DNA from: Alphaproteobacteria bacterium
GTDB taxonomy: Bacteria > Pseudomonadota > Alphaproteobacteria > JAAXGF01
DNA: 64,000 nt
Reading direction: 5' to 3'
Assembly: GCA_963555825.3 (NCBI GenBank)
Contig: CAUVXB020000002.1
Location: 224,001-288,000 of the forward strand
The notes below the pieces were generated by a model. That model searched no databases. It saw only the letters and a program-made list of their open reading frames with translations, and was not told the DNA's origin. The position numbers were made by a program, and so were the translations under genes. Shown piece after piece: positions 18,501-60,873 of this stretch (the stretch's first letter is position 1; each line of letters begins with the position of its first letter).

Positions 18501-18803
18501 GCGGGAACCATCGGGCACAACTATCTGAGCTTCTTCCGCCACGCCGTCGATGCCTGCCTCAAGGCCGGCGATTGGGACCGGGCGGAGCGCTACGCCGACG
18601 CGCTCGAGGACTACACCTGCGCTGAGCCGCTGCCCTGGTCCGACTTCTTCATCGCGCGCGGCCGGGCGCTTGTGGCTCATGGCCGCGGCGGACGTGACGA
18701 AACCACGATGCAGGAGCTGAAGCGCTTGCGCGATGAAGCCGAGCGGGTCGGTTTGAAGCCAGCCCTGCCGGCGCTCGACGCGGCGCTCGCCGAATCAGAT
18801 TGA
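15513..18803 (+). CDS. SAM + class III nucleotide cyclase + AAA/STAND ATPase + TPR protein
   Basis: WLRDLGLDQYAEAFAENEID (SAM), LFADIAGYT/KHMGDN/GDSVNLASRL (cyclase), AEAGMGKTRL (P-loop), EDVHWAD, GGNPLF, helical repeats. Confidence 0.92.
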   Translation: MNVAGWLRDLGLDQYAEAFAENEIDGETLPALTGDDLKEIGVGPLGHRKKLLAAIAELTTEEPAVAEEEAAAPAGERRQVTVLFADIAGYTKLSSALGAEATHALLNRYFEAVDSIVERYGGAVDKHMGDNVMALFGAPIAHDDDPLRAVRAALDIHERMTALADEAGHPLRAHIGIASGQVVASGTGSETHREYTVTGDSVNLASRLQDTAKPGETLISDALYRAVAEAVDCESLGDIAVKGIDAPVRAWRVGALRAADDGADRVAFVGRRAELTQFSGAAEACRANGAGQAIVVRAEAGMGKTRLVEEFTALAADQGYASHRGLVLDFGVGKGQDAIRTVVRSLLGIAPGGGKTLRQAAADTAIGDGIIVADRRVFLNDLLDLAQPVADRAMYDAMDNATRNDGKRAVVADLIRATSATAPIVIIVEDVHWADPLLLSHVAAMAAVIADCPALLVMTSRIEGDPLDAAWRAATGGCPLMTIDLGPLRRDEALTLAGAFIDATEKFAQDCIERAGGNPLFLEQLLRNAEERADEDIPASIQSLVLARMDRLEPADKRALQAASVIGQRFALDVLGHLLDDADYDCAGLIEHHLARPEGDDYLFAHALIRDGVYASLLKATRHELHERAAAWFADHDLVLRAQHLERAEHPSAASAYLEAAQAQAALYHYDVALRLVRRGCELAEGTTDAFALTAYLGELLHDTGAVADSMAANRRALEIAGNDVERCRAWIGLAAVMRLTNDYEDALSLLEKAEPIAVAHDLTLDLARLYHLRGNLYFPLGRVKACGEAHEKGLAHARQSGDAEAEARALGGMGDAAYMRGHMLTAHRNFSDCVALSRRQGFGRIEIAHQPMAGLTLMYANQFRASRETTLAAADAAARVGRLRAELNAVACAFHAMVDLGEIDDADALMAQYNALIDRLGAQAWEQAALAVEAVVQHIRGQHDQAIDTLRRALVRSRETTTEFYGPIILARIAEFTDDPTEREQALSEGEAMLEAGTIGHNYLSFFRHAVDACLKAGDWDRAERYADALEDYTCAEPLPWSDFFIARGRALVAHGRGGRDETTMQELKRLRDEAERVGLKPALPALDAALAESD

Positions 18804-22308: not shown

Positions 22309-24608
22309 TGTCCGGCTGCGCGCATAACTCGCCATAGGTATTCGGGCGTCAACGGCATGTCGACCTGGGTCACGCCCAAGGATGCGAGCGCATCGATCAC
22401 GGCGTTGACAATTGCCGGCGGGCCGCCGATACAGCCGGCCTCGCCACAGCCCTTGGTGCCGAGCGGGTTGGCCGTGCACGGCGTGACGTTGCGCGCCGCG
22501 TCGAAGGCCGGCAGGTCGTCGGCGCGCGGCAGGCAGTAGTCCATCAACGAGCCCGACAGCAACTGCCCAGAACCGGCGTCGTAGACGCTGCGCTCGAAGA
22601 CCGCCTGGCCGAGGCCCTGGGCGAGCGCGCCGTGCAGCTGGCCGTCGACGATCAGCGGGTTGACGACCAAGCCGAAATCGTCGACCGCGGTATAGGCGAC
22701 GATGTCGAGCACACCGGTCTCGCGGTCGATCTCGACCTCGGCGATGTAGCAGCCGTTGGGAAACGTCTGCGCCTCGGCGTAGAAACGGAAGCGGCCCTCG
22801 ATGCCGGCCGCGGCGCCGGCGGCGACCTCGGCGAGCCCAATCGCGCGGTCGGTGCCGGCGACCGTGAACCGGCCGTCGGCAAAGGTCAGATCGCGCGCCG
22901 ACACCTCGAGCCGATCGGCGGCGAGCCCGGCCACCTTGTCGATCACGATGTCGGCCGCACCGCCGATCGCGCTGCCGGCGTGCGCCAGCGAGCGCGAAGC
23001 GACCGTGCCTTCGCCGTAGGCGATGGCGTCGGTATCGCCCTGCACCAGCCAAATATCGTCGAACGGCAGGCCGAGGCGCTCGGCGACGAGCTGCACGAAG
23101 GCGGTCTCGTGGCCCTGGCCGGTCGATTGCGAGCCGACCGCGACGCTGACCGCGCCACCGGGATCGAGACGGATCGTCGCCTCCTCGGCCGCGCCGCCGC
23201 CGCAGCGCTCGATATAGGTCGCCATGCCGAGGCCACGCAGTTTGCCGCGCACGGCGGCGCTGGCGCGGCGTTTCTCGAATGCCGGCCAATCGACGCGCGC
23301 CATGGCGTCATCCATGTTGCGCGCGAAATCGCCGTTGTCGTAGACCAGTCCCAGCGCCGTCGCATAGGGCATCGCCGCCGGCGCTATGAAGTTGCGCCGC
23401 CGGATGTCGTCCGGCGCGATGCCGATCTCGCGCGCGGCGGTCTCGATCAGGCGCTCGATGACATAGGCCGCCTCGGGCCGCCCCGCGCCGCGATAGGCGT
23501 CGGTCGGCACGGTGTTGGTGAAGACCGTCGTATACGCGGCCGACGCCGCCGGAATGTCATAGACGCCGCTCAACATCGACGCGCTCAGGATGGTCGAGAT
23601 GAAGGCGCCGTGCGGCGACAGATAGGCGCCGAGGTTGACCGTCGTCGCGACTCGCAGGCCGAGGATGCGGTGCTCGGCGTCGAGCGCGAGCTCGGCGTGG
23701 GTCGCGTGGTCGCGCGCCTGGCTATCGCTGACGAAGCTTTCGCTGCGTTCGCCGATCCAGCGCACCGGCCGGCCGACCCGCCTGGCCGCCCACAGGACCA
23801 ACGCCTGTTCGGCGTAGAGGAACGCCTTCATGCCGAAACCGCCACCGACGTCGGGCGTGACCACGCGCAACATTTTGGGGGGCATCTTGAGAACGTGGCC
23901 AGCGATGGCGTCGCGCAGCCCGTGGACGCCCTGGGTCCCGCTGGTCAGCGTATAGCGCCCCGTCGCCGCGTCGAAGTCGCCGATCGCGTTGCGCGGCTCC
24001 ATCGAGGCGACGACGACGCGATTGTTGACCAGTTCGAGCGAAACCACCCGCGTGGCGCGCGCGAAAGCGGCGTCCGTGGCCGCCGCGTCGCCCAGCCGGT
24101 AAACGGTGCAGACGTTGCCCGGCGCCTCGTCCCGGATCTGCGGCTGGCCGGCTTTCGCCGCTGTCCGGGTGCCGGTAACGACCGCGAGCGGCGCGTACTC
24201 GACGGCGATGAGCTCGGCGGCGTCCTTGGCCTGGGCGAGGCTCTCGGCGACCACCAAGGCGACCGGCTCGCCGACGTGGCGCACCCGGCCCGCCGCCAGC
24301 AGCGGCCGGGGCGGCGTCGCCATCGGTGCGCCGTCCCAGTTGGGCACATCGTCCAGGCTGGGTAGTGTGCCAAGCCCGTCGGCGGCGACATCGGCGGCGG
24401 TCAAGACGGCGAGCACGCCGGGCGCCGCCGCCGCAGCCGCAGCCGCGGTGTCGATCGAGGCGATCTCGGCATGGGCGTGCGGCGATCGCAGCACGAAGCC
24501 ATATGCCTGGTTCGCCATGGCGATGTCGTCGGTATAGCGACCCTGGCCGGTCAGAAACCGGTCGTCCTCGCGCCGGCGCAGCGCCTGACCGATGCCGAAT
24601 TTCTCCAT
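22305..24608 (-). CDS. Xanthine dehydrogenase-family molybdopterin-binding large subunit (CoxL form II-like)
   Basis: RREDDRFLTGQGRYTDD, DVGGGFGMK, AYRGAGRPE, GQGHET, KGCGEAG. Confidence 0.92.
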   Translation of the reverse strand: MEKFGIGQALRRREDDRFLTGQGRYTDDIAMANQAYGFVLRSPHAHAEIASIDTAAAAAAAAPGVLAVLTAADVAADGLGTLPSLDDVPNWDGAPMATPPRPLLAAGRVRHVGEPVALVVAESLAQAKDAAELIAVEYAPLAVVTGTRTAAKAGQPQIRDEAPGNVCTVYRLGDAAATDAAFARATRVVSLELVNNRVVVASMEPRNAIGDFDAATGRYTLTSGTQGVHGLRDAIAGHVLKMPPKMLRVVTPDVGGGFGMKAFLYAEQALVLWAARRVGRPVRWIGERSESFVSDSQARDHATHAELALDAEHRILGLRVATTVNLGAYLSPHGAFISTILSASMLSGVYDIPAASAAYTTVFTNTVPTDAYRGAGRPEAAYVIERLIETAAREIGIAPDDIRRRNFIAPAAMPYATALGLVYDNGDFARNMDDAMARVDWPAFEKRRASAAVRGKLRGLGMATYIERCGGGAAEEATIRLDPGGAVSVAVGSQSTGQGHETAFVQLVAERLGLPFDDIWLVQGDTDAIAYGEGTVASRSLAHAGSAIGGAADIVIDKVAGLAADRLEVSARDLTFADGRFTVAGTDRAIGLAEVAAGAAAGIEGRFRFYAEAQTFPNGCYIAEVEIDRETGVLDIVAYTAVDDFGLVVNPLIVDGQLHGALAQGLGQAVFERSVYDAGSGQLLSGSLMDYCLPRADDLPAFDAARNVTPCTANPLGTKGCGEAGCIGGPPAIVNAVIDALASLGVTQVDMPLTPEYLWRVMRAAGQ

Positions 24609-24801
24609 GACCGTGCATCTCCCCCGCCCTCGCCGGTCCGGCGTGACTTCGACAATCCGGGGCGGCGTCATGAAACTTGCGCGGTGGCGACGCGATTCGC
24701 AAGGTCGGCGTCGCCGGCGAGGCGCGATTTGTTCGTGTCATTCGGCCGCGATGTATGGTTCCCTTGTGGCAACGCACAGAGCCGGGATTACCGACGGCAA
24801 C

Positions 24802-27588
24802 ATGAGCGACGACGCTAAACGTCCTGAACGCATTTCGCTGGGCCGCTACTACAACGCCGCCCAGCTACGCGCCGACAGCTGGAACCGGCTCAAGGTGCTC
24901 GCCCAGCGCCGTGCGGAGAAGCGCTCTGCGGGTGTCGACACCGCCGGTCTGCATCACGAGTTCGCACAGGCGCTCGACACCCTCGAGCCGATCGAGAGCT
25001 ATTGGGCGTTCCCCTCGAAGCAGGCCTTCGAGCATATCCGCATGTTGTTCGAACAGGGCGATGACAGCCGACTGGCGCGGCTGGTCGCGCGCATCGTGCG
25101 GGCCCTGGTCAGCCAGTCCTACCGGCGCGGCATGATCTCGATGGATTTCTATCACGACGCCGAGGACGAGGAGAACGACGATGCGATCCTCGAATCCTTC
25201 GCCGAGGCCGATGCCGCGCCGGACCGTCCCTATTTCGAGGTGCTCGTCGTCGACAACATCTCGGCGCACGACGAACGCACCCTGCGGTCGGGGCTGCGCG
25301 CCATGCGCCGGCCCGAGGACAGTTTCGTTTACGACGTGGTCGTCGTGCCGAGCTTCGAGGACGCCCTGATCGCGGTGCTGTTCAACCACAACCTACAGGC
25401 CGCCGTCATCCGCTACGGCTTTCCCTTCGCCTCGCGCCACAATCTCGATGTTCTGCACCGCTATCTCGAGGCCGTCGACGAGCGCGCGCTCGAGGGCCGG
25501 CCGGATGCCGACCACGGTCCCCTGCTCGGCCGCGTGATCGGCGAACTCAGACCCGAACTCGACTGCTATCTGGTGACCGATTCGGCGGTCGAGGACGTCG
25601 CCGGCGAGATCGCCCAGCACTTCCAGCGCATCTTCTACCGCCAGGAGGACTATCTCGAGCTGCATCTCAGCATTCTGCGCGGCATCGAACACCGCTACGA
25701 AACGCCGTTCTTCACCGCGCTGCGCGAGTACGCCAAGCAGCCGACCGGCGTGTTCCACGCCATGCCGATCTCGCGCGGCAAGTCGGTCACCAAGTCCCAT
25801 TGGATCCAGGACATGGCGCGTTTTTACGGCATGAACATGTTCCTGGCCGAGACCTCGGCGACCTCGGGCGGCCTCGATTCACTGCTGCAACCGCTCGGGC
25901 CGATCAAGAAGGCCCAACAGCTCGCGGCCCGCGCTTTCGGCGCGCGCCATACCTTCTTCGTCACCAACGGCACCTCGACCGCCAACAAGGTGGTCATGCA
26001 GGCGCTCGTCACGCCGGGCGATATCGTCTTGGTCGACCGCGACTGCCACAAGTCGCTGCACTACGGCATGGTGCTGGGCGGCGGCTATGTCGATTATCTC
26101 GACGCCTATCCGCTACACGACTACTCGATGTACGGCGCCGTGCCGCTGCGCCAGATCAAGGCTCGCCTGCTGGCCTACAAACGCGCCGGCAAGCTCGACC
26201 GGGTCAAGCTTCTGGTGCTGACCAACTGCACCTTCGACGGGCTGATCTACAACGTCGAGCGGGTCATGGAGGAGTGCCTGGCAATCAAGCCCAACCTGGT
26301 GTTCCACTGGGACGAGGCGTGGTTCGCCTTCGCCAGTTTCGTGCCCGCCTACCGCCAGCGCACCGCCATGTACGTCGCCAACAGGCTGCGCCGGCGCTTT
26401 GCCGGCGAACGCTACCGCGCAGAATACGCGGCCTGGCGCGAAGACTTCGACAAGCTCGATGGCGACGCCGACGAGACCTGGCTCGACACGCGGCTGATGC
26501 CCGACCCCGATGTGGCGCGGGTGCGTGTCTATGCCACCCATTCGACGCACAAGACGCTGACCTCGCTGCGCCAGGGCTCGATGATTCACGTCAACGACCA
26601 GGACTACCGCGCCAAGGTCGAGGAGGCCTTCCACGAGGCCTATATGACACACACCTCGACCTCGCCGAACTACCAGATCCTCGCCTCGCTCGACATCGGC
26701 CGGCGTCAGGTCGAGCTCGAGGGCTTCGAGCTGGTGCAGAAGCAGATCGAGCTGGCCATGGTGCTGCGCGAACGCATCAAGACACACCCGCTGCTGTCGA
26801 AATATTTCCATTTCCTGACCATGGACCACCTGATCCCGGCCGAATACCGGCCGTCGGGCATCCAGGTCTACTACGACCCCGAGCGCGGCTGGTCGCGCAT
26901 GGAGGAGGCCTGGGGCTCCGACGAGTTCGCACTCGACCCGTCACGGCTGACGCTGTTCGTCGGCAAGACGGGGACCGACGGCGATACCTTCAAGAACCGC
27001 GTGCTGATGGACCGCTACGGCATCCAGATCAACAAGACGTCGCGCAACACGGTGCTGTTCATGACCAACATCGGCACGACGCGCAGCTCGGTCGCCTACC
27101 TCATCGAGGTGCTCGTCAAGATCGCCGAGGAACTCGACGAGGAGTACGCCGAATCGAGCCCGATCGAACGGCGGCTGCACGACAAGCGCGTTGTGTCGTT
27201 GTGCGTGGACCTGCCGCCGCTGCCCGACTTCAGCCATTTTCACGATGCTTTCCGGCCCGACCCCGACGGCGACACGCCCGAGGGCGACATGCGCACCGCC
27301 TATTTCAAGGCCTACGACGACGCGCAGTGCCGCTATCTCGACATCGACGAGATCGGCCGCGCGATCGAGGGCGGCGAGGCGGTCGTCTCGGCGATGTTCG
27401 TCATCCCCTATCCGCCGGGATTCCCGATCCTGGTGCCGGGACAGGTGGTCAGCCGCGCGATCCTCGACTATATGGGCGCACTCGACGTCAAGGAGATCCA
27501 CGGCTACCGCCCCGAGCTCGGCATGCGCGTCTTCACCGAAGAGGCGCTGGAGACGGCGAGCGGCGAAACCAAACGGGCAGCGGAGTAG
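24802..27588 (+). CDS. Large PLP-dependent amino-acid decarboxylase (Orn/Lys/Arg decarboxylase fold) with a long N-terminal extension
   Basis: GVFHAMP, FVTNGTSTANK, DRDCHKSLHYG, TNCTFDG, HWDEAW, PLP-lysine motif ATHSTHKTL, HTSTSPNY, PYPPGFPILVPG. 928 aa from ATG 24802. Confidence 0.92.
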   Translation: MSDDAKRPERISLGRYYNAAQLRADSWNRLKVLAQRRAEKRSAGVDTAGLHHEFAQALDTLEPIESYWAFPSKQAFEHIRMLFEQGDDSRLARLVARIVRALVSQSYRRGMISMDFYHDAEDEENDDAILESFAEADAAPDRPYFEVLVVDNISAHDERTLRSGLRAMRRPEDSFVYDVVVVPSFEDALIAVLFNHNLQAAVIRYGFPFASRHNLDVLHRYLEAVDERALEGRPDADHGPLLGRVIGELRPELDCYLVTDSAVEDVAGEIAQHFQRIFYRQEDYLELHLSILRGIEHRYETPFFTALREYAKQPTGVFHAMPISRGKSVTKSHWIQDMARFYGMNMFLAETSATSGGLDSLLQPLGPIKKAQQLAARAFGARHTFFVTNGTSTANKVVMQALVTPGDIVLVDRDCHKSLHYGMVLGGGYVDYLDAYPLHDYSMYGAVPLRQIKARLLAYKRAGKLDRVKLLVLTNCTFDGLIYNVERVMEECLAIKPNLVFHWDEAWFAFASFVPAYRQRTAMYVANRLRRRFAGERYRAEYAAWREDFDKLDGDADETWLDTRLMPDPDVARVRVYATHSTHKTLTSLRQGSMIHVNDQDYRAKVEEAFHEAYMTHTSTSPNYQILASLDIGRRQVELEGFELVQKQIELAMVLRERIKTHPLLSKYFHFLTMDHLIPAEYRPSGIQVYYDPERGWSRMEEAWGSDEFALDPSRLTLFVGKTGTDGDTFKNRVLMDRYGIQINKTSRNTVLFMTNIGTTRSSVAYLIEVLVKIAEELDEEYAESSPIERRLHDKRVVSLCVDLPPLPDFSHFHDAFRPDPDGDTPEGDMRTAYFKAYDDAQCRYLDIDEIGRAIEGGEAVVSAMFVIPYPPGFPILVPGQVVSRAILDYMGALDVKEIHGYRPELGMRVFTEEALETASGETKRAAE

Positions 27589-27614
27589 TCCGTCGCGGCA
27601 AAGCTAAAATGAGG

Positions 27615-27730
27615 AACCACAGACACATAGAGGCACAGAGGTGAGGCCGCGTAGAGACGGGTTATTGTAAGGGCGGGTTTCAAACCCGTCCCTACGATAG
27701 TTTTCTCTGTGTCTCCGTGTCTCTGTGGTT
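27615..27730. repeat. CACAGAG-type inverted repeat enclosing a GTAG-type REP palindrome
   Basis: AACCACAGACACATAGAGGCACAGAG...CTCTGTGTCTCCGTGTCTCTGTGGTT (same family as 2580-2788). Inner palindrome CGTAGAGACGGGTT...AAACCCGTCCCTACG (27650-27696). Confidence 0.85.
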
Positions 27731-27784
27731 CTATAAACCCGAGGCGTCGCGAAGGTACAAGCGACCGGGGATAGGGAGGCAGCC

Positions 27785-29254
27785 ATGGCGCGCAGCGCGC
27801 AGAAGAAGAAACTCAACGGCATCTCGGAGATCCGGCGGTTCTTTCACCGCAACGAGTCGCCGATCTACTTCATCAGCGCGACCAATTTCAACCTGCTCGG
27901 GATCGATGAGTGGGTTAAAAATTTCAAATATATCAATTATTTAGACTGCTTCGACGGGCGCCATCCCAACGTCCTCGTGCCGAGCACCGACGACCACCCC
28001 GAGTTCGAGAGTATCGAGGACATCAACAACTACATGCTGCAGCACAAGGAGGTGCACGACTTCGTCAAGGGCCGCGGCAAGCGCCCCAAGGCGGTTTTCC
28101 TGATGTTCGACCGCGACACCGAACGGCTGGCGCGCGAGCTTGGCATGCAAGTCTGGTTCCCCAAGGCGCGGCTGCGCACCAAGGTCGACAACAAGATCGA
28201 GACCGTGCGTATCGGCGAGAAGGCCGGCGTGCCGAGCGTGCCCAACGTGCTGACCAAGGTCTCGAGTTATGACGCGTTGCGCAGGGCAAGCAAGGGGCTG
28301 GGCGAGGCGCTGGTGGTGCAGACCGCGTTCGGCGATTCGGGCCACACCACCTTCTTCATCTCGAACGAGGCCGACTGGCGGCGCCACGCCGACGAAATCG
28401 TCGGCCACGGCGAGGTCAAGATCATGAAGCGCATCAACTGCCTCGGCTCGACCATCGAGGCCTGCACCACCAAGGCGGGCACGATCGTCGGCCCGCTGCT
28501 TACCGAGCTGGTCGGCTTTCCCGCGCTGACGCCCTACAAGGGCGGCTGGTGCGGCAACGAGATCTTCCCCGAGGCGTTCACCCCCGAGATCCGCGCCGAC
28601 GCGCGCGACTTGACCTTCCGCTTCGGCGAGCAGCTTCGTCAGGAGGGCTATCGCGGTTATTTCGACCTCGATTTCCTGATCGACACCGAGACCGGCGAGC
28701 TGTGGCTGGGCGAGCTCAACCCGCGCATCACGGGCGCCAGCTCGATGACCAACCACGCCGCCTTCGCGCACGCCGACGCGCCCTTGTTCCTGTTTCACCT
28801 GCTGGAATTCTCGGGCGTCGACTTCGACTTCGACGTCGATGCGCTCAACGACCGCTGGGCCGACCCGGCCAATATCGACAGCTGGAGCCAGATGGTCATC
28901 AAGCATACCGAGGACACGGTCGACATCCTGACGGCGGCGCCCGAAAGCGGCATCTGGCGGCTCGGCGACGATGGCGGCATCGAATACGCGCGCTTCGACT
29001 ACCACCGCCGCGCCGTCGAGAACGAGCAGGAGGCCTTCTTCCTGCGTATCTCGGGCGCCGGCGACTACCGCTACGAGGGCGCCGATCTCGGCATCCTGAT
29101 CACGCGCGGCCGGCTGATGACCAAGACCCACCGCCTGAACGCCCGCGCCAAGCGCTGGATCGCGGGCATCAAGGGCCGCTTCACCGGCCAGCCGCTGGGC
29201 CGCACGCCGATGCCCGCCGCGGCCACCGAGCAGCCGGTCTTCAAGATCCTGTGA
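27785..29254 (+). CDS. Stand-alone ATP-grasp enzyme
   Basis: DNKIET, VVQTAFGDSGHTTF loop, GYRGYFDLDFL, GELNPRITG (ExNxR). RBS GGGAGG. Confidence 0.88.
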   Translation: MARSAQKKKLNGISEIRRFFHRNESPIYFISATNFNLLGIDEWVKNFKYINYLDCFDGRHPNVLVPSTDDHPEFESIEDINNYMLQHKEVHDFVKGRGKRPKAVFLMFDRDTERLARELGMQVWFPKARLRTKVDNKIETVRIGEKAGVPSVPNVLTKVSSYDALRRASKGLGEALVVQTAFGDSGHTTFFISNEADWRRHADEIVGHGEVKIMKRINCLGSTIEACTTKAGTIVGPLLTELVGFPALTPYKGGWCGNEIFPEAFTPEIRADARDLTFRFGEQLRQEGYRGYFDLDFLIDTETGELWLGELNPRITGASSMTNHAAFAHADAPLFLFHLLEFSGVDFDFDVDALNDRWADPANIDSWSQMVIKHTEDTVDILTAAPESGIWRLGDDGGIEYARFDYHRRAVENEQEAFFLRISGAGDYRYEGADLGILITRGRLMTKTHRLNARAKRWIAGIKGRFTGQPLGRTPMPAAATEQPVFKIL

Positions 29255-29792
29255 AGCCCGGAATTCTCACCATGGACAGGTGCGGCACGGCGGATATCGG
29301 ACGACAGGCTAGGAAAAGCGCGCCGCGCGATGCCAGTACTCCCTTGCACGATTCCACGGCACGTAGGATCGCGTTTCCCGTTTCCTCGGCAGGCGGGGGC
29401 GCGAAGGCGATGCCTTGGCATCGCAGAGCGTTCCCGACGCCCCGAGGGGGCGGGAAACGCGACCCGCAGGGCGGCCTTGCGCGGCCGCCGGCGGCGTTGC
29501 CCGGCGTTTGTGATGCGCCCAGCATCACGGCGCGCCGGGCGCCTTGCCGGACGACCACGCAAGGCCGTCCTACGTACCGTGGAATCGTGCAAGTGAGTAC
29601 TCGCGCACCGGGCAAGCGCTTTGACGCGGCCTGTCGTCCGAGATCCGCCGCCCTTAAGGGTCGCGCCGGGCGGGGCGGGCGCGGCGTCGAGGGCCTTGCG
29701 CGTAGCCCAGGCTATGCGCCGCGGCCTTCTCCTGGCGGATCGACGCCGCCCGACGCGATGACGCGCCTGTCCATAGTGAGAACTCCGGGCTA
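29255..29792. mobile_element. MITE-like element, family C, copy 1, carrying nested element D
   Basis: Inverted repeats AGCCCGGAATTCTCACCATGGACAGG / CCTGTCCATAGTGAGAACTCCGGGCT. 538 bp = 271-bp C (as at 40193-40463) + 267-bp insert. Confidence 0.9.
29335..29601. mobile_element. MITE-like element, family D (267 bp), nested in C
   Basis: 34-bp inverted repeats AGTACTCCCTTGCACGATTCCACGGCACGTAGGA / TCCTACGTACCGTGGAATCGTGCAAGTGAGTACT (2 mismatches). Absent from the second C copy. Confidence 0.88.
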
Positions 29793-29802
29793 GGGCCCCG
29801 GC

Positions 29803-30795
29803 ATGGAGCTGACCTTCAAGGCCATCGACGAGGGCCTGGCTGGGCCTGAGTGGGCCGCGCTGTTCGCCGCCAAATGGCCGGCCTACCGCCGCTGGTACCT
29901 GGGCGACGGCATCGACGCGCGGCCGGGTTACACCGAATGCATCAAGGCGCTGCGCGCCCACATGCCCGAGATCGTGCCGATGTACGAGAGGCTCTGTGAG
30001 CTGGCCGGCGGCGGCGACCTCGAGGCGCGCTTCCTCAGCCTCTACCGGCCGCCCGCCTTCGTGCAGGGCTGCAGCCAGGCGGCGTGGACGCAAGGCGAAC
30101 CGGTGCTGATGCGCAACTACGATTTCAGCCCGGCGCTCGCCGAGGGCACCATCCTCAAGAGCGGCTGGAACGGCGGCCGCGTCATCGCCTCGGTCGACTG
30201 CACCTGGGGCGTGCTCGACGGCATCAACGAGGCAGGCCTCGCGCTCAGCCTGACCTTCGGCGGGCGCAACGTGGTCGGCGACGGCTTCGCGATCTCGATC
30301 GTGCTGCGCTACATCCCCGAATTCTGCGCCACCGCGGCCGAGGCCGCCGAGGTGCTCGCCCGCGTGCCGGTCCACATGGCCTACAACGTGACCGCGCTCG
30401 ACAAGTCGGGCGATTATCTGACGACCTACATCTCGCCCGACCGCGAGGCGATCGTGCGCCGCCTGGCGATCGCCACCAACCACCAGAAGCAGATCGAGTG
30501 GCACCGCCACGCGCGCGCCACCGCGACGCTCGAGCGCGAGCGCTTCCTGTTCTTCCGCCTGACCGACCCGCGCATGACCGAACGCAAGCTGGCCAATGCG
30601 TTCCTAAAATCGCCGCTCTATTCGACGTCGTACGAGACCGGTTTCGGCACGCTGTATACGGCGCTCTACTGGCCGGCCGCCGGCCGCGCCGAATACCGCT
30701 GGCCCGGCGCGACCTGGAAACAGTCGTTCGACCGCTTCGAGCCCGGCGAACGCCGCCAGGACTACGGCACGGCCACGCAGCGCTCGGCGGGTTGA
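29803..30795 (+). CDS. Peptidase C45-family autoproteolytic Ntn acyltransferase/hydrolase
   Basis: G|CSQ predicted autocleavage/nucleophile site, RNYD, GVLDGINEAGL, ATNHQ, FGTLYT. Confidence 0.87.
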   Translation: MELTFKAIDEGLAGPEWAALFAAKWPAYRRWYLGDGIDARPGYTECIKALRAHMPEIVPMYERLCELAGGGDLEARFLSLYRPPAFVQGCSQAAWTQGEPVLMRNYDFSPALAEGTILKSGWNGGRVIASVDCTWGVLDGINEAGLALSLTFGGRNVVGDGFAISIVLRYIPEFCATAAEAAEVLARVPVHMAYNVTALDKSGDYLTTYISPDREAIVRRLAIATNHQKQIEWHRHARATATLERERFLFFRLTDPRMTERKLANAFLKSPLYSTSYETGFGTLYTALYWPAAGRAEYRWPGATWKQSFDRFEPGERRQDYGTATQRSAG

Positions 30796-30799
30796 CGCG

Positions 30800-32626
30800 T
30801 CAGGCGCGGCGCAGCAGGTACATGCGCAGGTCGCCGTAGCCCTTGGCCGCAGGTACGGTGCCGACGTAGTCGCAGTCGAACTCGTGGCGCGGGTCGAGCG
30901 CCAGGCCGGCGGCGAAATGCTCGGTGACGTAGACGCAGCCCTCGGGCGTGATCGGCTCGATGCGCGCCGCCCGGCTGACGTGGGCGCCGAAGAAGTTGGT
31001 CGCGCCGACGATCGGGTCGATGGCCTCGTAGACCGGCCCGAAATGGCCGCCGAGGCGCAACGCGATAAACGCCGGCAGGCCCAAGTCGGCCAGCGACAGT
31101 ACGGCCATCGCCGCCTGCAGGTCGAGCGCGCAGCGCGCGGCGGCGGCGATGTCGTCGAACACCAGGTAGACGCCGTCGCCCCAGGTGTTGCGGAAGAGGA
31201 GCGGGCCGGCGAACCGTTCGAGCACCCGAGCCATGGCGCCCAGCACCGCGCGCACGAAGACCGGCAGCTGGCGGTCGTCGAGCTTGCTGAAACCCTTGAC
31301 GTCGCCGAACAGCATGGCCCGGTTGACCCGTCTGGTGACCGGCTCGGCCGGCTCGGCCGGCGCGGCCGGCTCGGGCGCCGCCGGCGCTGCCGCGCCGGCC
31401 GGGCACGGGATCACGGTCTGCGGATGGCCGATGTCGCGCCACAGCGCGGCGTCGACTGCGGTGCCGACCGTCCCCTTGGCCGGGCCGCCATCCCACAGCG
31501 CGACCTGGGCGACCGGGGCGTCGAGGTAGTGGCCGCGCAGCAGCGCGAGGCCCATGGCGAGGCGGCTGGCGTAGGCGAACAGCTCGTCGTCGCCGAGGTA
31601 ATGGTCCTCGGTCGCATAGGTGACCGTCGCGGCCTTAGCCAGGCAGTCGCGCGCGCGGCCCTCCCAACCGGGCCCGCCGCGCCGCACCGAGGTGTCGAGG
31701 AACTCGTCCAAGGTAAACGGCAGCACCAGGTTGAGCTCGGCGCCGCGCGCCAAGAGCGCCTCGGCGAACAGGATGTCGGCGCCGCAGGCGATCGAGCCGT
31801 AGCCGAAGCGGGCGTCGACCTCATTCAGCTGCGCCGCGATCGCGGCCGCCGCCTCGTCCTCGCCCTCGGCCGGGAAGCGCCCGGGTTCGCCCGGCGCGGC
31901 GATCATATGGCCGGTGAAATGGACTACCCGCCCGGCGGCGAGCTCGTCGAGCAGCGCGTCGTCGAGGTTGAGCGCGCGGCAGATGTGGCGCAGCTGCTTG
32001 CGCGTCGTCGCGCGCGCGCCGAGATCGTCTCCATGCGCCGCCACCGCCGCGGCCAACGCCACCCTCGCGGCCTCGGTCTCGCCCAGGATCAAGCGCGCCT
32101 CGGCGACGGTCGCCGCTCGGTAGTAGGCCTCGACGCCCGCCGCCCCGGGCAGCGCCTCGATCTCGGCGATCAAACGTGCCGCGATGTCCCCGGCAACGTC
32201 GCGCTCGCCCGCGATGAGCCGCATGGTCGCCGTGTTGATGCCGGGAAAGTATGTCTTGGTGCGCTCATAGACTCGGCCATAGGCCTCGGCCGCGTCGTGC
32301 GCACGCCGCGCCCGTTCATCGCCCTCGGCCAGCCAGACCAGATCCTTGCCGAGCCGAGCGCCGAGCGCCGCGATGTCCTCGTCGTCGTCTTGGTCAAGCC
32401 CGTATTCGGCATAACGCGTCAACGCCGTCTCGGTCGCCCCCGAGCGCGCCAGCGCCATCACCGCGCGGTGCGCGAGCCATTTGTCGCCGGGATGCGCGTC
32501 CAGCCCGCGCAACGCCGCGTCGTAGGCGCGCAGCATCATGCCCCGCGTCTCGAAACTGCGCACCAGCGCGCGCCAGTCGTCGAGGCTGGCAGGGGGTTGG
32601 TCGGTGGCGGGCGGCGTGTCGGTCAT
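30800..32626 (-). CDS. TPR/TRAF-binding-like domain + SLOG-like domain + class III nucleotide cyclase
   Basis: 608 aa from ATG 32626. N-terminal helical domain (ALARSG, ARLGKD, YFPGINTAT). Middle FTGHM..GRFP..GSIACGADILFAE..LVLPF..ALWDG (SLOG-like). C-terminal LFGDVKGFS/NTWGDG/GHFGPV/VSRAARIE. Confidence 0.85.
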   Translation of the reverse strand: MTDTPPATDQPPASLDDWRALVRSFETRGMMLRAYDAALRGLDAHPGDKWLAHRAVMALARSGATETALTRYAEYGLDQDDDEDIAALGARLGKDLVWLAEGDERARRAHDAAEAYGRVYERTKTYFPGINTATMRLIAGERDVAGDIAARLIAEIEALPGAAGVEAYYRAATVAEARLILGETEAARVALAAAVAAHGDDLGARATTRKQLRHICRALNLDDALLDELAAGRVVHFTGHMIAAPGEPGRFPAEGEDEAAAAIAAQLNEVDARFGYGSIACGADILFAEALLARGAELNLVLPFTLDEFLDTSVRRGGPGWEGRARDCLAKAATVTYATEDHYLGDDELFAYASRLAMGLALLRGHYLDAPVAQVALWDGGPAKGTVGTAVDAALWRDIGHPQTVIPCPAGAAAPAAPEPAAPAEPAEPVTRRVNRAMLFGDVKGFSKLDDRQLPVFVRAVLGAMARVLERFAGPLLFRNTWGDGVYLVFDDIAAAARCALDLQAAMAVLSLADLGLPAFIALRLGGHFGPVYEAIDPIVGATNFFGAHVSRAARIEPITPEGCVYVTEHFAAGLALDPRHEFDCDYVGTVPAAKGYGDLRMYLLRRA

Positions 32627-34778
32627 CGGCGCAGCTTTTCGCAATCGACGCCGGCCCTCGGCCGGGCGTCGGACGGCGGGTCGGGGTCGAGGAGGAATTG
32701 CTCGCGCTGTTCCTTGGTGAGTTGCCGAGGGACGATGCAGCGCGCATAGTCGATCAGGGCTTGCGTGGTCGGAAAGTATGGCCAAAGTCGGGCCGTCTTG
32801 TCCTCGGACGCAGTTACGATGCGGCTGCCATCGGGGCTGAAGGCGGCATAGATCACGCTATCAGTGTGGCCGTGTAGAAAAGCGATTTCTTCGCCATTTG
32901 CTGAATCCCAAACGCGTGCGGTATTGTCCGCGGATGCCGTAACAATACGGTTGCCGTCTGGGCTGAAGTCAGCGTGCCCGACATCAAGCGTATGACCGCG
33001 TAGCACCCCAATCTCGGCGCCGCTGGCCACATCCCAAAGATTTACCTCGCCATGCCCCGAGGCAGTAACCACCAAATTTCCATTGGGACTGAAGGCTGCG
33101 TAGTTGACAAAGGCCTCGGATCCACGCAGGACGGCCATCTCCCCGCCGTTTTCCGTGTCCCAGATGCGCGCCGTGTTGTCCATGGCTGCAGTGACGACTC
33201 GGCGGCTATCGGGACTGAAGGCGACATGATTGATTCGTGTCTCATGGCCTCGGAGGATGGTCAGCTCATCGCCGCTCTCTGGGTCCCACAGCCGTGCGGT
33301 ACGGTCAAATGATGCGGTGGCGACGCGGCGGCCGTTGGGACTGAAGATAGCGTGGTAGATCGGACCCGTGTGGCCGCTTAGGACGGTAAGTTCGACGCCG
33401 CTCAACGCATCCCACAGGCGCGCCGTGCCATCCATTGACGCCGTAACGACGCGGTCTCCATGAGGGCCGAATTCGGCGTAGGTAAGCTTTGCCTGGTGGC
33501 CGACAAGGACGGCAATTTCGGTGCCGCTCGCTGCATCCCACAGCCGGGCCGTACCATCATTTGACGCGGTAACGATGCGGTCGCCGTCAGGGCTGAAAGC
33601 ACCATGGACGACGGTGTCATCATGACCTCGGAGGTTCCCAATTTCGGCGCCGTCGGCCACATCCCAAAGGCGCGTCGGCCCATCGACAGACGTGGTCAAA
33701 ACCCGCCTTCCGTCGGGGCTGAATGCGGCGGAAGAAACTTTGCTCGAATGACCCTGTAAGACAGTGACGCGAGCACCGCTCGTTCCATCCCACAGGCGGG
33801 CTGTCCCGTCGGCCGACCCGGTGACAATTCGATTTCCGCCGGGGTGGTACGCGGCGTATCCGACCGAATACTCATGACCACGAAAAACGGCGATTTCGGA
33901 ACCACTAGTCACATCCCACAGTCGCGCGGTGGCATCTCCCGAAGCAGTAATGACGAGTGACCCGTCAGGACTGAAGGTTGCGAAAAAGAGGTCCTGTTCA
34001 TGGCCACGGAGGACGAAAATTTCCGAGCCACTCTCCGCGTCCCACAGCCGCGCCGTGCTATCCAACGAAGCGGTGACAACCAGGCTTCCGTCATAGTTGA
34101 AGTCGGTGTGCCAAACCGGGCCCACGTGCCCGGCGAGGACGGCAAGCTCGGCACCGCTGGTGACGTCCCACAAGCGTGCTGTCCCGTCGAATGACGCAGT
34201 GACAACGCGGTTTCCTCTGGGGTCGAACGCCGCATACACAACTGCGCTCTCATGGCCGCGTAGGACAGCGATCTCGACTCCCCCCGCCGCATCCCAGAGC
34301 CGCGCCGTATCATCGTAGGACGCGGTCACGATGCGGCTGCCGTCGGGACTGAAGGCGGCGTGCGCGACTTTGTCCTCGTGACCGCGCAGCACGGCGATCT
34401 CGACCCCGTCCTTCGCATCCCAAATTCGGGACGTTGAATCCATCGACGCAGTGAGGACTCGGCGTCCATTGGGACTGAACTCAGCGTGGTTGACCGGTGC
34501 CTCGTGGCCGCTCAGAACAGTGATCTCCGTACCGCTTGCTGAGTCCCATATACGTGCCGTCCGGTCCCATGAACTGGTTATGACATAGTCGCCATCGGAG
34601 CTGAAAGCAGCGTCCAGAACGTCACCCTTATGACCGCGAAGGACAGCGATCTCGGCGCCAGTTGTCGCATCCCATAGACGTGCCGTTCCACCCCACGACC
34701 CGGTGACGATAGTGAGTCGGACCCGATTTCCTTGGACACAGAATTGGCTTAATCGAAGTGTCCAAGGAGGACCGGAAC

Positions 34779-35189
34779 ATGACCGACAATTTTGAGAACA
34801 AAGTTGCTGTTGATGGGCCTGTGGTAAACGAGGGCGAGCTTGGCTCGTCCACGTTTTCCCCGGGCCAGGTTTCGCCGGCAGGCCCGCTGGGACTTGGCCA
34901 GCGGTGGACGGTGACGCGCAAGCGTGAGGTTGCCCTGCGGCTTTTGCGTGGCGAGCCGGTGGAACTTTTGTCGCGGCAGTTGGGCGTGGAGATTTTCCGG
35001 CTCGAGCAGTGGCGTGAGAAGGCGATCGCCGGGATCGATGCCTCGCTCAAGGAACGCAAGGGCGATCCGGTGAAGGCGGAACTGGACATCGCCATGAAGC
35101 GGATCGGGGAGTTGATCATGCAGGTGGAACTGCTGGAGGCCAAGACGGAGACGTCCGGCCCTTTGGGGCGGCGGAGGTCGCGGCGATGA
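34779..35189 (+). CDS. IS3-type transposase OrfA (HTH)
   Basis: RWTVTRKREVALRLLRGEPVELLSRQLGVEIFRLEQW. ATGA overlap with OrfB. Confidence 0.85.
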   Translation: MTDNFENKVAVDGPVVNEGELGSSTFSPGQVSPAGPLGLGQRWTVTRKREVALRLLRGEPVELLSRQLGVEIFRLEQWREKAIAGIDASLKERKGDPVKAELDIAMKRIGELIMQVELLEAKTETSGPLGRRRSRR

Positions 35190-36097
35190 GTGCCGCCACC
35201 TCTCCCGGCACGGGTTTGGCCTACGGCCTCCAGCGGGTCTGTGCGGCCTGGGGTTTTGCCCGTTCCTCGTTCTACGCCATGAAATCCCGGCAGCAGGCCA
35301 CCGCTGAGCGCCCACCAGCAAAGCGCCGGGGACCGAAGCCCTCGATCTCGGACGAGGCTCTGCTGGTGGCCATCGAGGCCGACCTGGAGGCATCCCCCTG
35401 GGAGGGCGAGGGACACCGCAAGGTCTGGGCTCGGCTTCGGGTCTGTCGTGGCATCCGTGTTTCCCGCAAGCGGGGGCTCCGGGTGATGCGCGAGAACAAC
35501 CTGCTCTCGCCCCATCGCTGCCGCCGCCGTGGCGGAAATCCCCATGTCGGTGAGATCATCACCCATGCCCCCAACCTCATGTGGGGCACGGACGGCGTTC
35601 GGGTGTTCACGGTGGACGACGGCTGGGGCTGGATATTCACCGCCATCGAGCATTGGAACGCCGAGTGCGTCGGCTGGCATGTGTGCAAGCGAGGCGACCG
35701 CTTCGCCGCCCTTCAGCCGATCTCCATGGGGCTTGCGAGGCTGTATGCCTCGACCTCCGCCGGTGCGGCGCGGGGGCTGGCCTTGCGGATGGATCACGGC
35801 TCCCAGTATCTGTCGGACCACTTCACCAACCAGATCAAGTTCTGGGGCATCCAGCCGTCCTACGCCTTCGTCGAACAGCCCCAGACCAACGGCGTCGCCG
35901 AGAGGTTCAATCGCACGCTCAAGGAACAGATCATCCATGGCCGCATCTACCGCAACATCGCGGAGCTGCGGAACGCCGTCCGCGGGTTCGTCGAACAGTA
36001 CAATGCCCAGTGGATCGTGGAGAAGAACGGCTACCTGAGCCCCGCTCAAGCTCGTCAGGCGTGGCACACCGCGATGTCACTCAGGCCCGCCGCATGA
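35186..36097 (+). CDS. IS3-type transposase OrfB (rve DDE integrase core)
   Basis: PNLMWGTD, RMDHGSQY, PQTNGVAERFNRTLKE. Confidence 0.93.
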   Translation: MSAATSPGTGLAYGLQRVCAAWGFARSSFYAMKSRQQATAERPPAKRRGPKPSISDEALLVAIEADLEASPWEGEGHRKVWARLRVCRGIRVSRKRGLRVMRENNLLSPHRCRRRGGNPHVGEIITHAPNLMWGTDGVRVFTVDDGWGWIFTAIEHWNAECVGWHVCKRGDRFAALQPISMGLARLYASTSAGAARGLALRMDHGSQYLSDHFTNQIKFWGIQPSYAFVEQPQTNGVAERFNRTLKEQIIHGRIYRNIAELRNAVRGFVEQYNAQWIVEKNGYLSPAQARQAWHTAMSLRPAA

Positions 36098-37421
36098 GAC
36101 AAACTTGTGTCCAAGGAACCGGGTGCGATACACCCGGTGACGATAGTGCGCCCGTCGGGACTAAACGCGACGCGCTCGACAGGCCCTTGGTGTCCTCGCA
36201 ATATCGTCAACTCCCGATGCGAATACATGGCTCGGTAAAGAGCATTCTCGGCCCGAATAGCAAATGGACGGTCCGGATTTGTCATATCGTCTGGCAAAGC
36301 CTCCAAAGCAAGCAACAAGCCGTTGGTCGCGTTCCCCATCTCTGTCTGTCGGACCGAAAGTTCGGCCAGGCGCAAGCTCTCGGCGCGTGCCTTTTGCCAC
36401 GCCTCGTCCCGCGCCTGGCGCTCGCCGTGGAACCAGATGCCGCCGACGACGAGAAGCGCGGCGACGCTCGCGGCCGCCACCTGGACGCGGCGCCAGGCGC
36501 TGCGGCGCTTATCGCGCTGCTTGAGTTCGTCGAAGTCGACGCCGAGCAAGCCGGCGAGCAGCTTGAGGCGGGCGTCGGGCTTGGCGTCCTTGCCCGGGCG
36601 GGCGTCGGCGGCGATCGGTTCGGTGCGTTGGTCGGTGTAGGCGCCGTCTTCGTCGATTTGGAAGCGCAGCGCCGGGCAGAAGCACTCCTCGGCCTCGCGC
36701 CCATCCTTGTCCGAGGCGTTCGGCTCGCCGCCGACGATCAGGCACAGGATGCGGTTCTCGCGTCCCAACCGCTTGAACTGGAGGACCTCCTCGTTGACCC
36801 AGATCGATTTGGCCGCCGATGGCGAGCAGATGACGATCAGATAGCGCGACTGTTCCAGGGCATCGCGGATCGTTGCGCCGAGATCGGCCGAGGTCGGCAA
36901 TTCCTCGCGATCGCGAAAGATCGGGTAGGGGCGCTTCGGGACGACGCCGTCACGCGATGTCCGGCCGACCAAACGCTTGGGCGTCCGGTAGCGCTCAATC
37001 GCTTGGTGCAGCCACTTGCCCCAGCCGTCGTCGTCGTGGCTGTAGCTTATGAACGCCCAATATTTCGGATCACCGGTCATTGCTGATTGCCATTAGAGCA
37101 TAATCCGACCGATCGGAATCGGTCGGAATATGCCAGCCCGCGACCGCGGGCCGATCGGCGAAAGCATGCGCGGCGATTGAGCGCAGGTCACTTTTACGCA
37201 GTTAAGGTGACCGTTTCATGCTTGAAACCACAGCCGAGAGCACCGAATAAGTTGCGCGGCGGCGGGGTGAAGATTCTTCTGGCGCGGCGCGAAAAATCTG
37301 CTATAGAGCGGGCGCCCGGACGTCGGCCCGAAAGCGGCCCGCGCCGGGCTTGTTATCAACGGCCCAAAATCAGCCGCGGGCGAGCGGATCGCCACGCGGG
37401 ACGGGCCTAAGGACACGGCGA

Positions 37422-59460: not shown

Positions 59461-60873
59461 ATGGGGAAGCCGATGACCGCCGAGCTATCGAGCGAAGCGC
59501 CGACAACCGGTTTGGGTTGCCCGGTGAAATCGACCCTCCACGAGCGCATCGCCGCGCGCGTGGAACGGGGATTGGCGCACGACGCGCTTGCCGGCATTCG
59601 TCAAGCGGCGATCGTCCGAGCGGTTGCGCTGCTGGTGGTCGCGGGCTGGGTGGTCGTCAACCACCCGTTTCCCCAAGCGTGGTTTTATCTCGCGATCCTG
59701 TTCATCCTCCTTGCCCTTGGCGTCGCAAATCGTCTCGCCGCCGTCGCGCTTTTCCCGGCGACTTGGCCGAGCTATCTCTTCATTCTCGCCGATTCATGCC
59801 TGGTGGCTGCCGCGCTGGCCGTGCCGAACCCGTTCGGTCCGGAGCCATGGCCGATACAGATGCATGTCCGCCATGCGCCCATATCATTCTTCTACATCTT
59901 CATCGCCGCCACACTACCGACCTACGCGCCGCGCAAGGTGCTGTGGAGCGGCGCCAGCGCCATACTCGCCTGGTCGGCGGTGCTGGTCTGGGTGGCCTGG
60001 CTTCCCGAAACCGACGTCGGCATGGGCAGCCAGCCCTTCATCGAGGACACCAGCAGCACGATTCAGGGGCCGTTCACCAATCCGTATTTCATCTATCTCG
60101 ACATGCTTTTGCGCGACCTCTTCCTCTTGGCCGTGGTAACCGGCATCCTCGCGGCCGTCGTCTGGCGCGTGCGCGCGATGGTTCTGCGCCAATCGGAGAC
60201 CGAGCGCCAGCGCGCCAATCTGGCGCGCTATTTCTCGCCAAACATGGTCGAGGAGCTGGCCGGCGCCGATCAAGGTTTCGACACGGTTCGCCAGCACGAC
60301 GCGGCGGTGTTGTTCGTCGACATGGTCGGTTTCACCGGCTTCGTCGAGTCGCATAGTCCCGAGGAAACCTTCGCCGTGCTGCGTGAGTTCCACGGCCTGA
60401 TGGCCGAGCATATCTTCGCCAACGACGGCACGCTCGACAAATACATCGGCGACGCGGTGATGGCGATCTTCGGCGTGCCGCGCGCCGGCCCACGCGACGC
60501 CGCCAACGCGCTGGCCTGCGCGCGCGCCATGCTCGCGGCGCTCGACGCGTGGAACGAGCGGCGCGCCGCGGTGGGCGAACGCCCGGTCAAGGCGACCGTC
60601 GGCGTCCATTGCGGGCCGGTGGTGGCCGGCGACATCGGCGACGAGCGGCGCCTCGAGTTCGCGGTCATCGGCGACACGGTCAATGTCGCCAGCCGGCTCG
60701 AGCACCTGACCCGCGAGCTCGCCACCGACGCGGTGTTCTCGGACGACCTGATCGTCGCCGCGCACCGCGAGCTGAGCGACGAGGGCGGGTTGTTCGACGG
60801 GCTGACGCCGGCGACACCGCAAGTGATCCGCGGCCGCGCGGCGGAACTCGCCGTCTGGACCTTGGCCGCCTAG
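59461..60873 (+). CDS. Membrane-anchored class III adenylate cyclase
   Basis: Several hydrophobic helices, LFVDMVGFT, DKYIGDA, IGDTVNVASRL. Confidence 0.92.
   Translation: MGKPMTAELSSEAPTTGLGCPVKSTLHERIAARVERGLAHDALAGIRQAAIVRAVALLVVAGWVVVNHPFPQAWFYLAILFILLALGVANRLAAVALFPATWPSYLFILADSCLVAAALAVPNPFGPEPWPIQMHVRHAPISFFYIFIAATLPTYAPRKVLWSGASAILAWSAVLVWVAWLPETDVGMGSQPFIEDTSSTIQGPFTNPYFIYLDMLLRDLFLLAVVTGILAAVVWRVRAMVLRQSETERQRANLARYFSPNMVEELAGADQGFDTVRQHDAAVLFVDMVGFTGFVESHSPEETFAVLREFHGLMAEHIFANDGTLDKYIGDAVMAIFGVPRAGPRDAANALACARAMLAALDAWNERRAAVGERPVKATVGVHCGPVVAGDIGDERRLEFAVIGDTVNVASRLEHLTRELATDAVFSDDLIVAAHRELSDEGGLFDGLTPATPQVIRGRAAELAVWTLAA

Follow-up and report, generated by a model that had tools for sequence, protein, structure and literature searches.

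A conserved active-site variant of a predicted class III nucleotidyl cyclase in a TIR-linked sensor-cyclase family

What does a class III cyclase make when the residues that select its base follow neither of the established patterns, and what might gate it? This question is raised by a gene in a 64,000 nucleotide stretch of DNA from an Alphaproteobacteria bacterium (hereafter the window; positions 224,001 to 288,000 of contig CAUVXB020000002.1, assembly GCA_963555825.3). The gene encodes a protein of 608 amino acids in which a TPR-S domain, a YpsA-like SLOG domain and a class III cyclase domain are fused. The original prediction described its base-specificity residues as non-canonical and suggested, pointing to the Pycsar systems, that the product may not be cyclic AMP (cAMP). 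As judged from sequence, the protein is a conserved active-site variant of the class III cyclases and belongs to a family of sensor-cyclases linked to TIR-domain proteins. The gene comprises the following features:

30800..32626, minus strand: gene for the TPR-S, YpsA-like SLOG and class III cyclase fusion, 608 amino acids (P0001; open reading frame and Pfam)
31949..32587, minus strand: TPR-S sensor solenoid, about residues 14-226 (Pfam PF20308, E 4.6e-10, and fold match)
31403..31933, minus strand: YpsA-like SLOG domain, residues 232-408, likely a nucleotide sensor (fold match)
30803..31333, minus strand: class III nucleotidyl cyclase domain, residues 432-608 (Pfam PF00211, E 4.5e-6, folds and conservation)
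31172..31189, minus strand: NTWGDG, with Asn480 at the site of the adenine-specifying Lys, Trp482 and the second metal-binding Asp484 (alignments and conservation)
30962..30997, minus strand: NFFGAHVSRAAR, with the site-2 residue Asn544, Ser551 at the site of the transition-state Asn, and Arg555 (alignments and conservation)

The cyclase homology fold of class III enzymes is found both in the PF00211 match, which lies above the Pfam cut-off, and in the structural match to CyaB (Z 21.1, root-mean-square deviation (rmsd) 2.2, 174 residues aligned). As had been described, both metal-binding aspartates are kept on the minus strand, D442 in GDVKGFS (31306-31286) and D484 in NTWGDG (31189-31172). 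HMMER alignments with solved cyclases placed N480 at the Lys/Glu site, N544 of the motif NFFG (30997-30986) at the Asp/Cys site of the second specificity region and S551 of VSRAAR (30979-30962) at the site of the transition-state Asn, with R555 present, in agreement with the substitutions named in the original prediction. A canonical adenylyl cyclase would carry Lys paired with Asp, Thr or Ser, and the transition-state Asn, none of which is matched by N480, N544 and S551; N480 likewise departs from the guanylyl cyclases, defined by Glu at site 1 with Cys or Gly at site 2 (PMC4215837). In class III enzymes the selected base is usually read from a Lys/Asp or a Glu/Cys pair (PMC4215837); the three residues conform to neither, and this rule cannot predict the product.

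Among 43 cyclase-domain matches in the genome (some of them fragments), the N/N/S combination at the three sites was found solely in the 608-aa protein, as was a Trp two residues before the second metal-binding Asp. The combination is more than chance, because it is unique among these matches and N480 is kept in close homologs. Trp482, which the original prediction did not mention, is the most conserved unusual residue of the pocket. The two further class III cyclases of the window, encoded at 15513-18803 (SAM-cyclase-AAA-TPR) and 59461-60873 (470 aa), do contain the motifs KHMGDN (at 15888) and KYIGDA (at 60439) with which the variant had been contrasted, but they are not fully canonical themselves, site 2 being occupied by Thr and Ala.

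Conservation was followed in three sets of homologs. In the close set (120 best homologs, query included), N480 is present in 118, W482 in all 120 and S551 in 111 sequences. The distant set consists of 151 rows from 50%-identity representatives and is biased, as its profile was built from loci selected by the NTWGD pattern. Here, the catalytic core is nearly invariant (D442, D484 and R524 in 150 rows each, R555 in 149, K595 in 148); we take R524 and K595 to be the phosphate-binding Arg and Lys, applying mammalian cyclase numbering to the alignments. N480 is kept in 139 of the 151 rows, W482 in 147 and Tyr or Phe at position 487 in 133, with Glu at site 480 in two rows and Lys in one. Site 544 is occupied by Asn (60), Thr (24), Gly (18), Ser (17), Ala (9), Val (9) or Asp (4), and site 551 by Ser (69), Thr (59) or Asn (13). 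The least biased set was obtained by drawing 200 genomes evenly from the host's class and contains 15 full-length homologs, with N480 in 14, Lys at this site in one and W482 in all 15; the canonical transition-state Asn is present in all seven members of a distant subclade within this set. Motif counts from the 80 loci described below were set aside, since the NTWGD pattern had selected those loci.

The counts indicate that the catalytic core is strongly constrained while site 2 carries no fixed signal. Because the core and N480/W482 are kept across relatives, the substitutions are a family signature and not decay, and conservation in all three sets rules out a pseudogene. Asn544 as a base determinant was likewise ruled out, as the site is variable among the 151 rows. 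Of the positions flagged as a specificity signal, 480 is kept family-wide, whereas 544 and 551 vary. By these alignments, the true family signature is N480 together with W482 and an aromatic residue at 487. The family is large, with 1501 clusters at 50% identity reaching E<=1e-30 with the cyclase profile and at least 570 loci in species-level genomes, and it is represented in 15 of the 200 genomes sampled from the host's class. One member (L094 / L113, G003) combines Lys at the Asn480 site with the canonical transition-state Asn and offers a natural control for specificity. Two outliers were noted: P0133 (2884 aa, possibly eukaryotic) has family-type cyclase matches near its C-terminus behind an unrelated N-terminus, and in L116 (G069) the lone SLOG domain of the family lies in a 206-aa frame without TPR-S or cyclase.

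Which purine cyclase, if any, provides a precedent for such a pocket? Behind CyaB, the closest folds are Cya2 (Z 20.3) and Rv1900c (Z 19.6-20.4), and Rv1900c is the top Foldseek match of the cyclase domain; Cya2 and other guanylyl cyclases score level with the adenylyl cyclases. Rv1900c (LipJ of M. tuberculosis, 1ybt/1ybu), deposited in the PDB as an adenylyl cyclase, reads N-T-A-G-D-G in the region of the Lys site and has His at the transition-state site. Thus, like the 608-aa protein, it has Asn in place of Lys and has lost the transition-state Asn, while the metal-binding Asp pair and the Arg are kept. It has purported adenylyl and guanylyl cyclase activity (PMC4886424), and in the adenylyl cyclase Ma1120 the transition-state Asn is replaced by Ala (PMC4215837). 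The two proteins differ in that their identity is 22-26%, that Rv1900c carries Ala where the family has Trp482 and Asp at site 2, and that its cyclase is fused to an alpha/beta hydrolase and not to TPR-S and SLOG domains. The purine precedent, the closest purine folds and the kept catalytic core favour a purine cyclic nucleotide monophosphate (cNMP). From the residues, we would give cAMP roughly even chances of being the main product; cyclic GMP (cGMP) comes next with a small but real chance, followed by no or another product and, close to it, a pyrimidine nucleotide. A product other than cAMP, inactivity included, is a little less probable than an even bet.

The pointer to Pycsar was not borne out, although the pocket is indeed non-canonical. 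The structural comparison with adenylyl, guanylyl and PycC cyclases, proposed as a check in the original prediction, gave Z 19-21 for purine cyclases and Z 14.4-15.8 for PycC structures (15.8, 14.6 and 14.4). At E<=0.1, the 608-aa protein matched no PycC model of PADLOC, compared with ten for the ordinary cyclase of the window (59461-60873). The pyrimidine determinants of PycC enzymes are given as Y50/D94/R97, F100/R142/Q144 and F60/K104/F109 (PMC11224242). When placed on the 608-aa protein by spacing from the metal-binding Asp, they fall on F440, N480, W482, G485 and Y487; none of the polar determinants is present, and the two aromatic positions alone agree with AnPycC, of which the Phe at 440 is generic. 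The family thus resembles PycC (BcPycC 7r65, AnPycC 8jsz, EaPycC 8jsf) and PucC in its class III fold, its changed base pocket and a neighbouring TIR gene, and AnPycC in the Phe two residues before the first Asp and the aromatic residue three past the second. Unlike these, it gives no profile match and lacks Y50/D94/R97, R142/Q144, K104 and the PucC residue E118. By these comparisons, the 608-aa protein is not a PycC.

As for the effectors expected of Pycsar, TIR and cNMP-binding matches never share an open reading frame in the 80 loci and the window, and no fusion of a cNMP-binding and a transmembrane domain (PycTM) was found among the 148 of 282 neighbours scanned against PADLOC at E<=1e-12. 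As the TIR partners lack cNMP-binding domains, they are not Pycsar-type effectors, and the order of signalling would be reversed, with TIR upstream and the cyclase downstream. A search for PycC returned none in 61 genomes and one in 401 genomes. In a quick tree of little weight, which included one PycC on a long branch and left out Rv1900c, the stem of the family measured 2.37 changes per site (support 100). The Pucsar preprint surveys immune cNMP cyclases and reports a cGMP-making PucC; SLOG is not mentioned in the text passages covered (bioRxiv 10.64898/2026.08.12.744502).

A homodimer model of the protein reached a score of 0.89, compared with 0.00 for the best of three controls. This speaks for the head-to-tail dimer of class III cyclases, but such a pass is expected from the likeness to solved cyclase dimers; of the solved pairs, 20 of 30 attained the mark applied, as did 1 of 23 single chains. 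The contacts of the model agree to at least 97%, with a predicted local distance difference test (pLDDT) value of at least 92. They include N480-N480', N480-W482', W482-W482' and Y487-W482', with N480 and W482 at the two-fold axis. Since the signature residues touch across this axis, their conservation may be partly structural. The model reports no ligand contacts and has no bearing on the fit of a base.

The two remaining domains are sensor-like. The AlphaFold model of the whole protein (pLDDT 92.3) shows three domains. The middle one, folded alone, matches B. subtilis YpsA best (2nx2, Z 17.9, rmsd 2.3, 153 residues aligned, VIA-align), followed by DprA (Z 13.1) and the LOG proteins; it gave no match in Pfam and no sequence match in the PDB. 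The N-terminal solenoid matches the central regulatory region of ASK1 (5ulm, Z 18.0, rmsd 3.1, 218 aligned). The identity to YpsA and ASK1 is just 14-15%, and in contrast to both, the two domains are fused to a cyclase. YpsA-like SLOG domains have been described as sensors or processors of cyclic ADP-ribose (cADPR) (PMC9503650), and it is likely that the TPR-S and SLOG domains of the 608-aa protein sense nucleotides.

What could they sense? The gene upstream on the same strand, whose WD40 frame ends in a stop codon that overlaps the ATG of the cyclase gene (ATGA), encodes a TIR-WD40 protein and is split by an insertion sequence (IS):

36149..37080, minus strand: 5' part of the partner gene, covering a TIR domain that carries the catalytic Glu, a predicted membrane-spanning helix and the first of the WD40 repeats (Pfam TIR_2, E 1.2e-11)
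34698..36148, no strand assigned: IS of 1417 bp (34715-36131) splitting the TIR-WD40 gene, flanked by 17-bp direct repeats (34698-34714 / 36132-36148)
32623..34697, minus strand: 3' part of the partner gene, WD40 beta-propeller repeats (Pfam WD40, E 2.4e-130)

The helix predicted after the TIR domain lies at about 36425-36485 (hydropathy 2.05). With the IS taken out, both parts form one reading frame of 1007 codons. As the partner is split in this assembly, the relay proposed below may be crippled here. In a sponge metagenome DNA run (X9), a contig joins the flanks without the IS and at the depth of the flanks, therefore an intact TIR-WD40 allele exists. The genome harbours 79 full-length copies of the IS that are nearly identical, which points to a recent burst, and the 17-bp target repeats are unusually long.

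The link to TIR was followed in the 80 best of the at least 570 genome loci, chosen by pattern and rank. A TIR domain lies within 8 kb in 54 of the 80 loci, and in 58 if DUF4062-like STAND proteins are counted; in 40 of these 58 the neighbour is found within 500 bp by open reading frame. The host genome contains two TIR genes in 6.04 Mb. The catalytic Glu is kept in all 60 TIR domains of the neighbours, and a membrane helix is predicted after the TIR domain in 45 of 57. The partners have unrelated architectures (TIR-transmembrane-WD40, other TIR-transmembrane proteins, PAP2-TIR and TIR- or DUF4062-STAND); all that they have in common is the TIR-like domain and the catalytic Glu in it, a pattern consistent with a diffusible product. 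In loci L073-L080 (Nitrospina-type) the order is fixed as cyclase, a 550-577-aa protein without Pfam match and a PAP2-TIR fusion, while in L024, L028, L053, L103, L104 and L108 nSTAND1 proteins with an N-terminal DUF4062-like domain occupy the place of the TIR receptor.

A catalytic TIR beside a sensor-enzyme protein is reminiscent of Thoeris types I and III (TIR with a SLOG effector) and VIII (TIR with the TPR/CMP-hydrolase ThsI; cADPR), and the SLOG-fold sensor of Thoeris has its counterpart in the YpsA-like domain. Unlike in Thoeris, where the output is a killing enzyme, the output domain here is a second-messenger synthase, and most TIR partners are predicted membrane receptors. A Thoeris survey distinguishes 29 putative types and shows that one TPR-bearing effector is responsive to cADPR; no cyclase effector is named in its main text (bioRxiv 10.64898/2025.12.03.692087); cNMP cyclases occur in other conflict systems (PMC7159879). 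The loci of the family do not look like defence islands: the PADLOC scan of 148 of the 282 neighbours gave one near full-length defence-type match (SoFic), the others being cNMP-binding, ABC and helix-turn-helix matches. In the literature, no paper on TPR-S with a cyclase and SLOG or TIR and no experimental study was found, where the Aravind papers defining TPR-S and SLOG lay outside the search and may show the architecture.

Candidate readers of the product were sought among the neighbours. A CRP-type gene (cNMP-binding and helix-turn-helix domains) lies within two genes of the cyclase in 10 of 78 loci scored and adjoins it in 2 of the 15 least biased loci; any cNMP-binding domain is found nearby in 21 of 80. 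The 12 linked CRPs were aligned to the CRP of M. tuberculosis. One of them, from one of the two least biased loci, carries Thr-Ser, the cAMP-type pair, and another carries Ile-Ser; the Asn typical of PycTIR occurs in none of the 12. The remaining ten, all actinobacterial, have Asp at the position of Ser128. An inference of the product from these pockets was dropped, as Asp-type and Thr-Ser-type are mixed. Besides CRPs, L015, L039, L041, L057 and L062 harbour, close to the cyclase, large genes that encode two cNMP-binding domains, and the one scanned (L039) adds a C39 peptidase and an ABC transporter, a possible cNMP-gated exporter. In L019, L035, L040, L048, L050, L060 and L065, the CRP gene is followed by one for a 226-250-aa protein without Pfam match and with a hydrophobic N-terminus, a possible relay target.

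The reading that we prefer, with a probability of about 0.45 for the whole chain, is that a TIR signal gates an active homodimeric cyclase whose product would be a purine cNMP, with cAMP the likeliest and the selectivity for the base relaxed. What the comparisons show is the domain make-up, the intact metal and phosphate residues, the Asn480/Trp482 signature, the link to TIR and, in a minority of loci, CRP neighbours; the steps of the relay are inferred. A cue would be sensed by a membrane-bound TIR receptor or a STAND protein, whose TIR domain would then produce an ADP-ribose derivative. Binding of this product by the SLOG and/or TPR-S domain would alter cyclase activity. The base would be selected without the Lys/Asp pair, as in Rv1900c, and Asn480 and Trp482 would perhaps be kept partly for the dimer centre. 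CRP-type regulators would then respond to the cNMP, and the outcome would be a change in transcription rather than abortive infection. This order would be reversed relative to Pycsar, where the cyclase acts upstream of TIR. If TIR products do gate the cyclase, immune-type signals derived from NAD would be linked to CRP-type control of transcription, and the cNMP read-out could be used to find ligands of YpsA-like SLOG and ASK1-like TPR-S domains. If the enzyme is merely an adenylyl cyclase of the Rv1900c kind, its residue changes have precedent and interest rests on the TIR link. A large family in which the textbook residues do not reveal the product bears on the rules of base selection in class III cyclases.

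Several observations weigh against this reading. The 80 loci are mutually related and not independent, and in the least biased set a TIR or DUF4062-like neighbour is present in just 6 of 15 loci, namely in 6 of 8 of the near clade and in 0 of 7 of the distant subclade (some of these flanks are short). The SLOG domain of ThsA, a proven binder of ADP-ribose isomers, matches the middle domain much more weakly (Z 6.4). Rv1900c is distant by sequence (profile E 0.039), so that the shared Asn may be convergent, and Trp482 and the aromatic residue at 487 have no counterpart in it; being bulkier, they could narrow the pocket. Asn reads uracil in PycTIR and some CD-NTases (PMC11224242). Finally, the Asp of the ten actinobacterial CRPs resembles a cGMP reader.

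Among the alternatives, it holds up best, though we regard it as unlikely, that the TIR link is real but works otherwise, with the SLOG domain clearing the TIR product, TIR contacting TPR-S directly or the cyclase acting upstream of TIR. SLOG domains comprise hydrolases as well as sensors (PMC9503650), the fold of the middle domain is nearer to YpsA, DprA and LOG than to the ThsA SLOG, and in the distant subclade all three domains are found together in loci that lack a TIR neighbour. This is countered by the partners of unrelated architecture that have the TIR-like domain with catalytic Glu as their sole common part, as fits a diffusible product, and by their lack of the cNMP-binding domains that a Pycsar-type effector would have.

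Rather unlikely is the same relay with cGMP as the main product, read by the linked CRP-type proteins. Loss of the adenine-specifying Lys from nearly all members and the fold scores of guanylyl cyclases including Cya2, level with those of adenylyl cyclases, would fit, as would the report of PucC as an immune cGMP-making cyclase (bioRxiv 10.64898/2026.08.12.744502). An acidic residue at the Ser128 position marks the cGMP-specific XC_0249 (PMC11224242), and ten linked CRPs have Asp there; this Asp is weak evidence, however, because an unlinked CRP of the host genome has it as well, and one linked CRP is of the cAMP-type Thr-Ser kind. The Glu that specifies guanine is rare at site 480 (2 of the 151 rows).

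It is improbable that the enzyme is a pyrimidine cyclase with an origin separate from that of Pycsar. Trp482 and Tyr/Phe487 would here shrink the pocket and Asn480 would read uracil or cytosine, in line with the Asn of PycTIR and some CD-NTases. Position 482 is the site of the PycC determinants D94, Q144 and K104, position 487 matches F109 of AnPycC by spacing, and the family stem is very long, if only in a quick tree. Opposed to this are the missing PycC profile match, the lower PycC fold scores, the absent polar determinants, the lack of CNBD-TIR fusions among the TIR neighbours and of the PycTIR-type Asn in the linked CRPs, and the Lys found at 480 in one natural member and one of the 151 rows. 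It is similarly doubtful that a widespread two-messenger relay exists in which an NAD-derived signal from Toll-like membrane receptors gates a TPR-S/SLOG cyclase whose Asn480/Trp482/Tyr487 pocket makes a cyclic pyrimidine or another non-cAMP nucleotide for dedicated CRP-type transcription factors; a pyrimidine relay of this kind would represent a pyrimidine cyclase unrelated to Pycsar that serves gene regulation.

The weakest alternative, a regulatory pseudo-cyclase that binds nucleoside triphosphates and forms dimers yet yields hardly any cNMP or none, or performs other chemistry, could account for three canonical residues being replaced together, changes that often lower activity (PMC4215837), and for most loci having no cNMP receptor nearby, but is improbable given that the Asp pair, both Arg and Lys595 are each found in 148 or more of the 151 rows, that active cyclases without the transition-state Asn exist and that CRP genes lie directly beside the cyclase gene in different phyla.

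A search for sigma-70 promoters and terminators found none. Short contigs from the RNA libraries X15 and X17 cover parts of the cyclase domain at a depth of 2-2.5, which is not proof of transcription. On the opposite strand, three co-oriented genes (24592-30795, plus strand) converge on the cyclase gene. They encode a 998-aa Orn/Lys/Arg decarboxylase, a 489-aa protein without Pfam match that is ATP-grasp-like by eye, and an AAT/C45 acyltransferase, and possibly form a small-molecule or peptide pathway.

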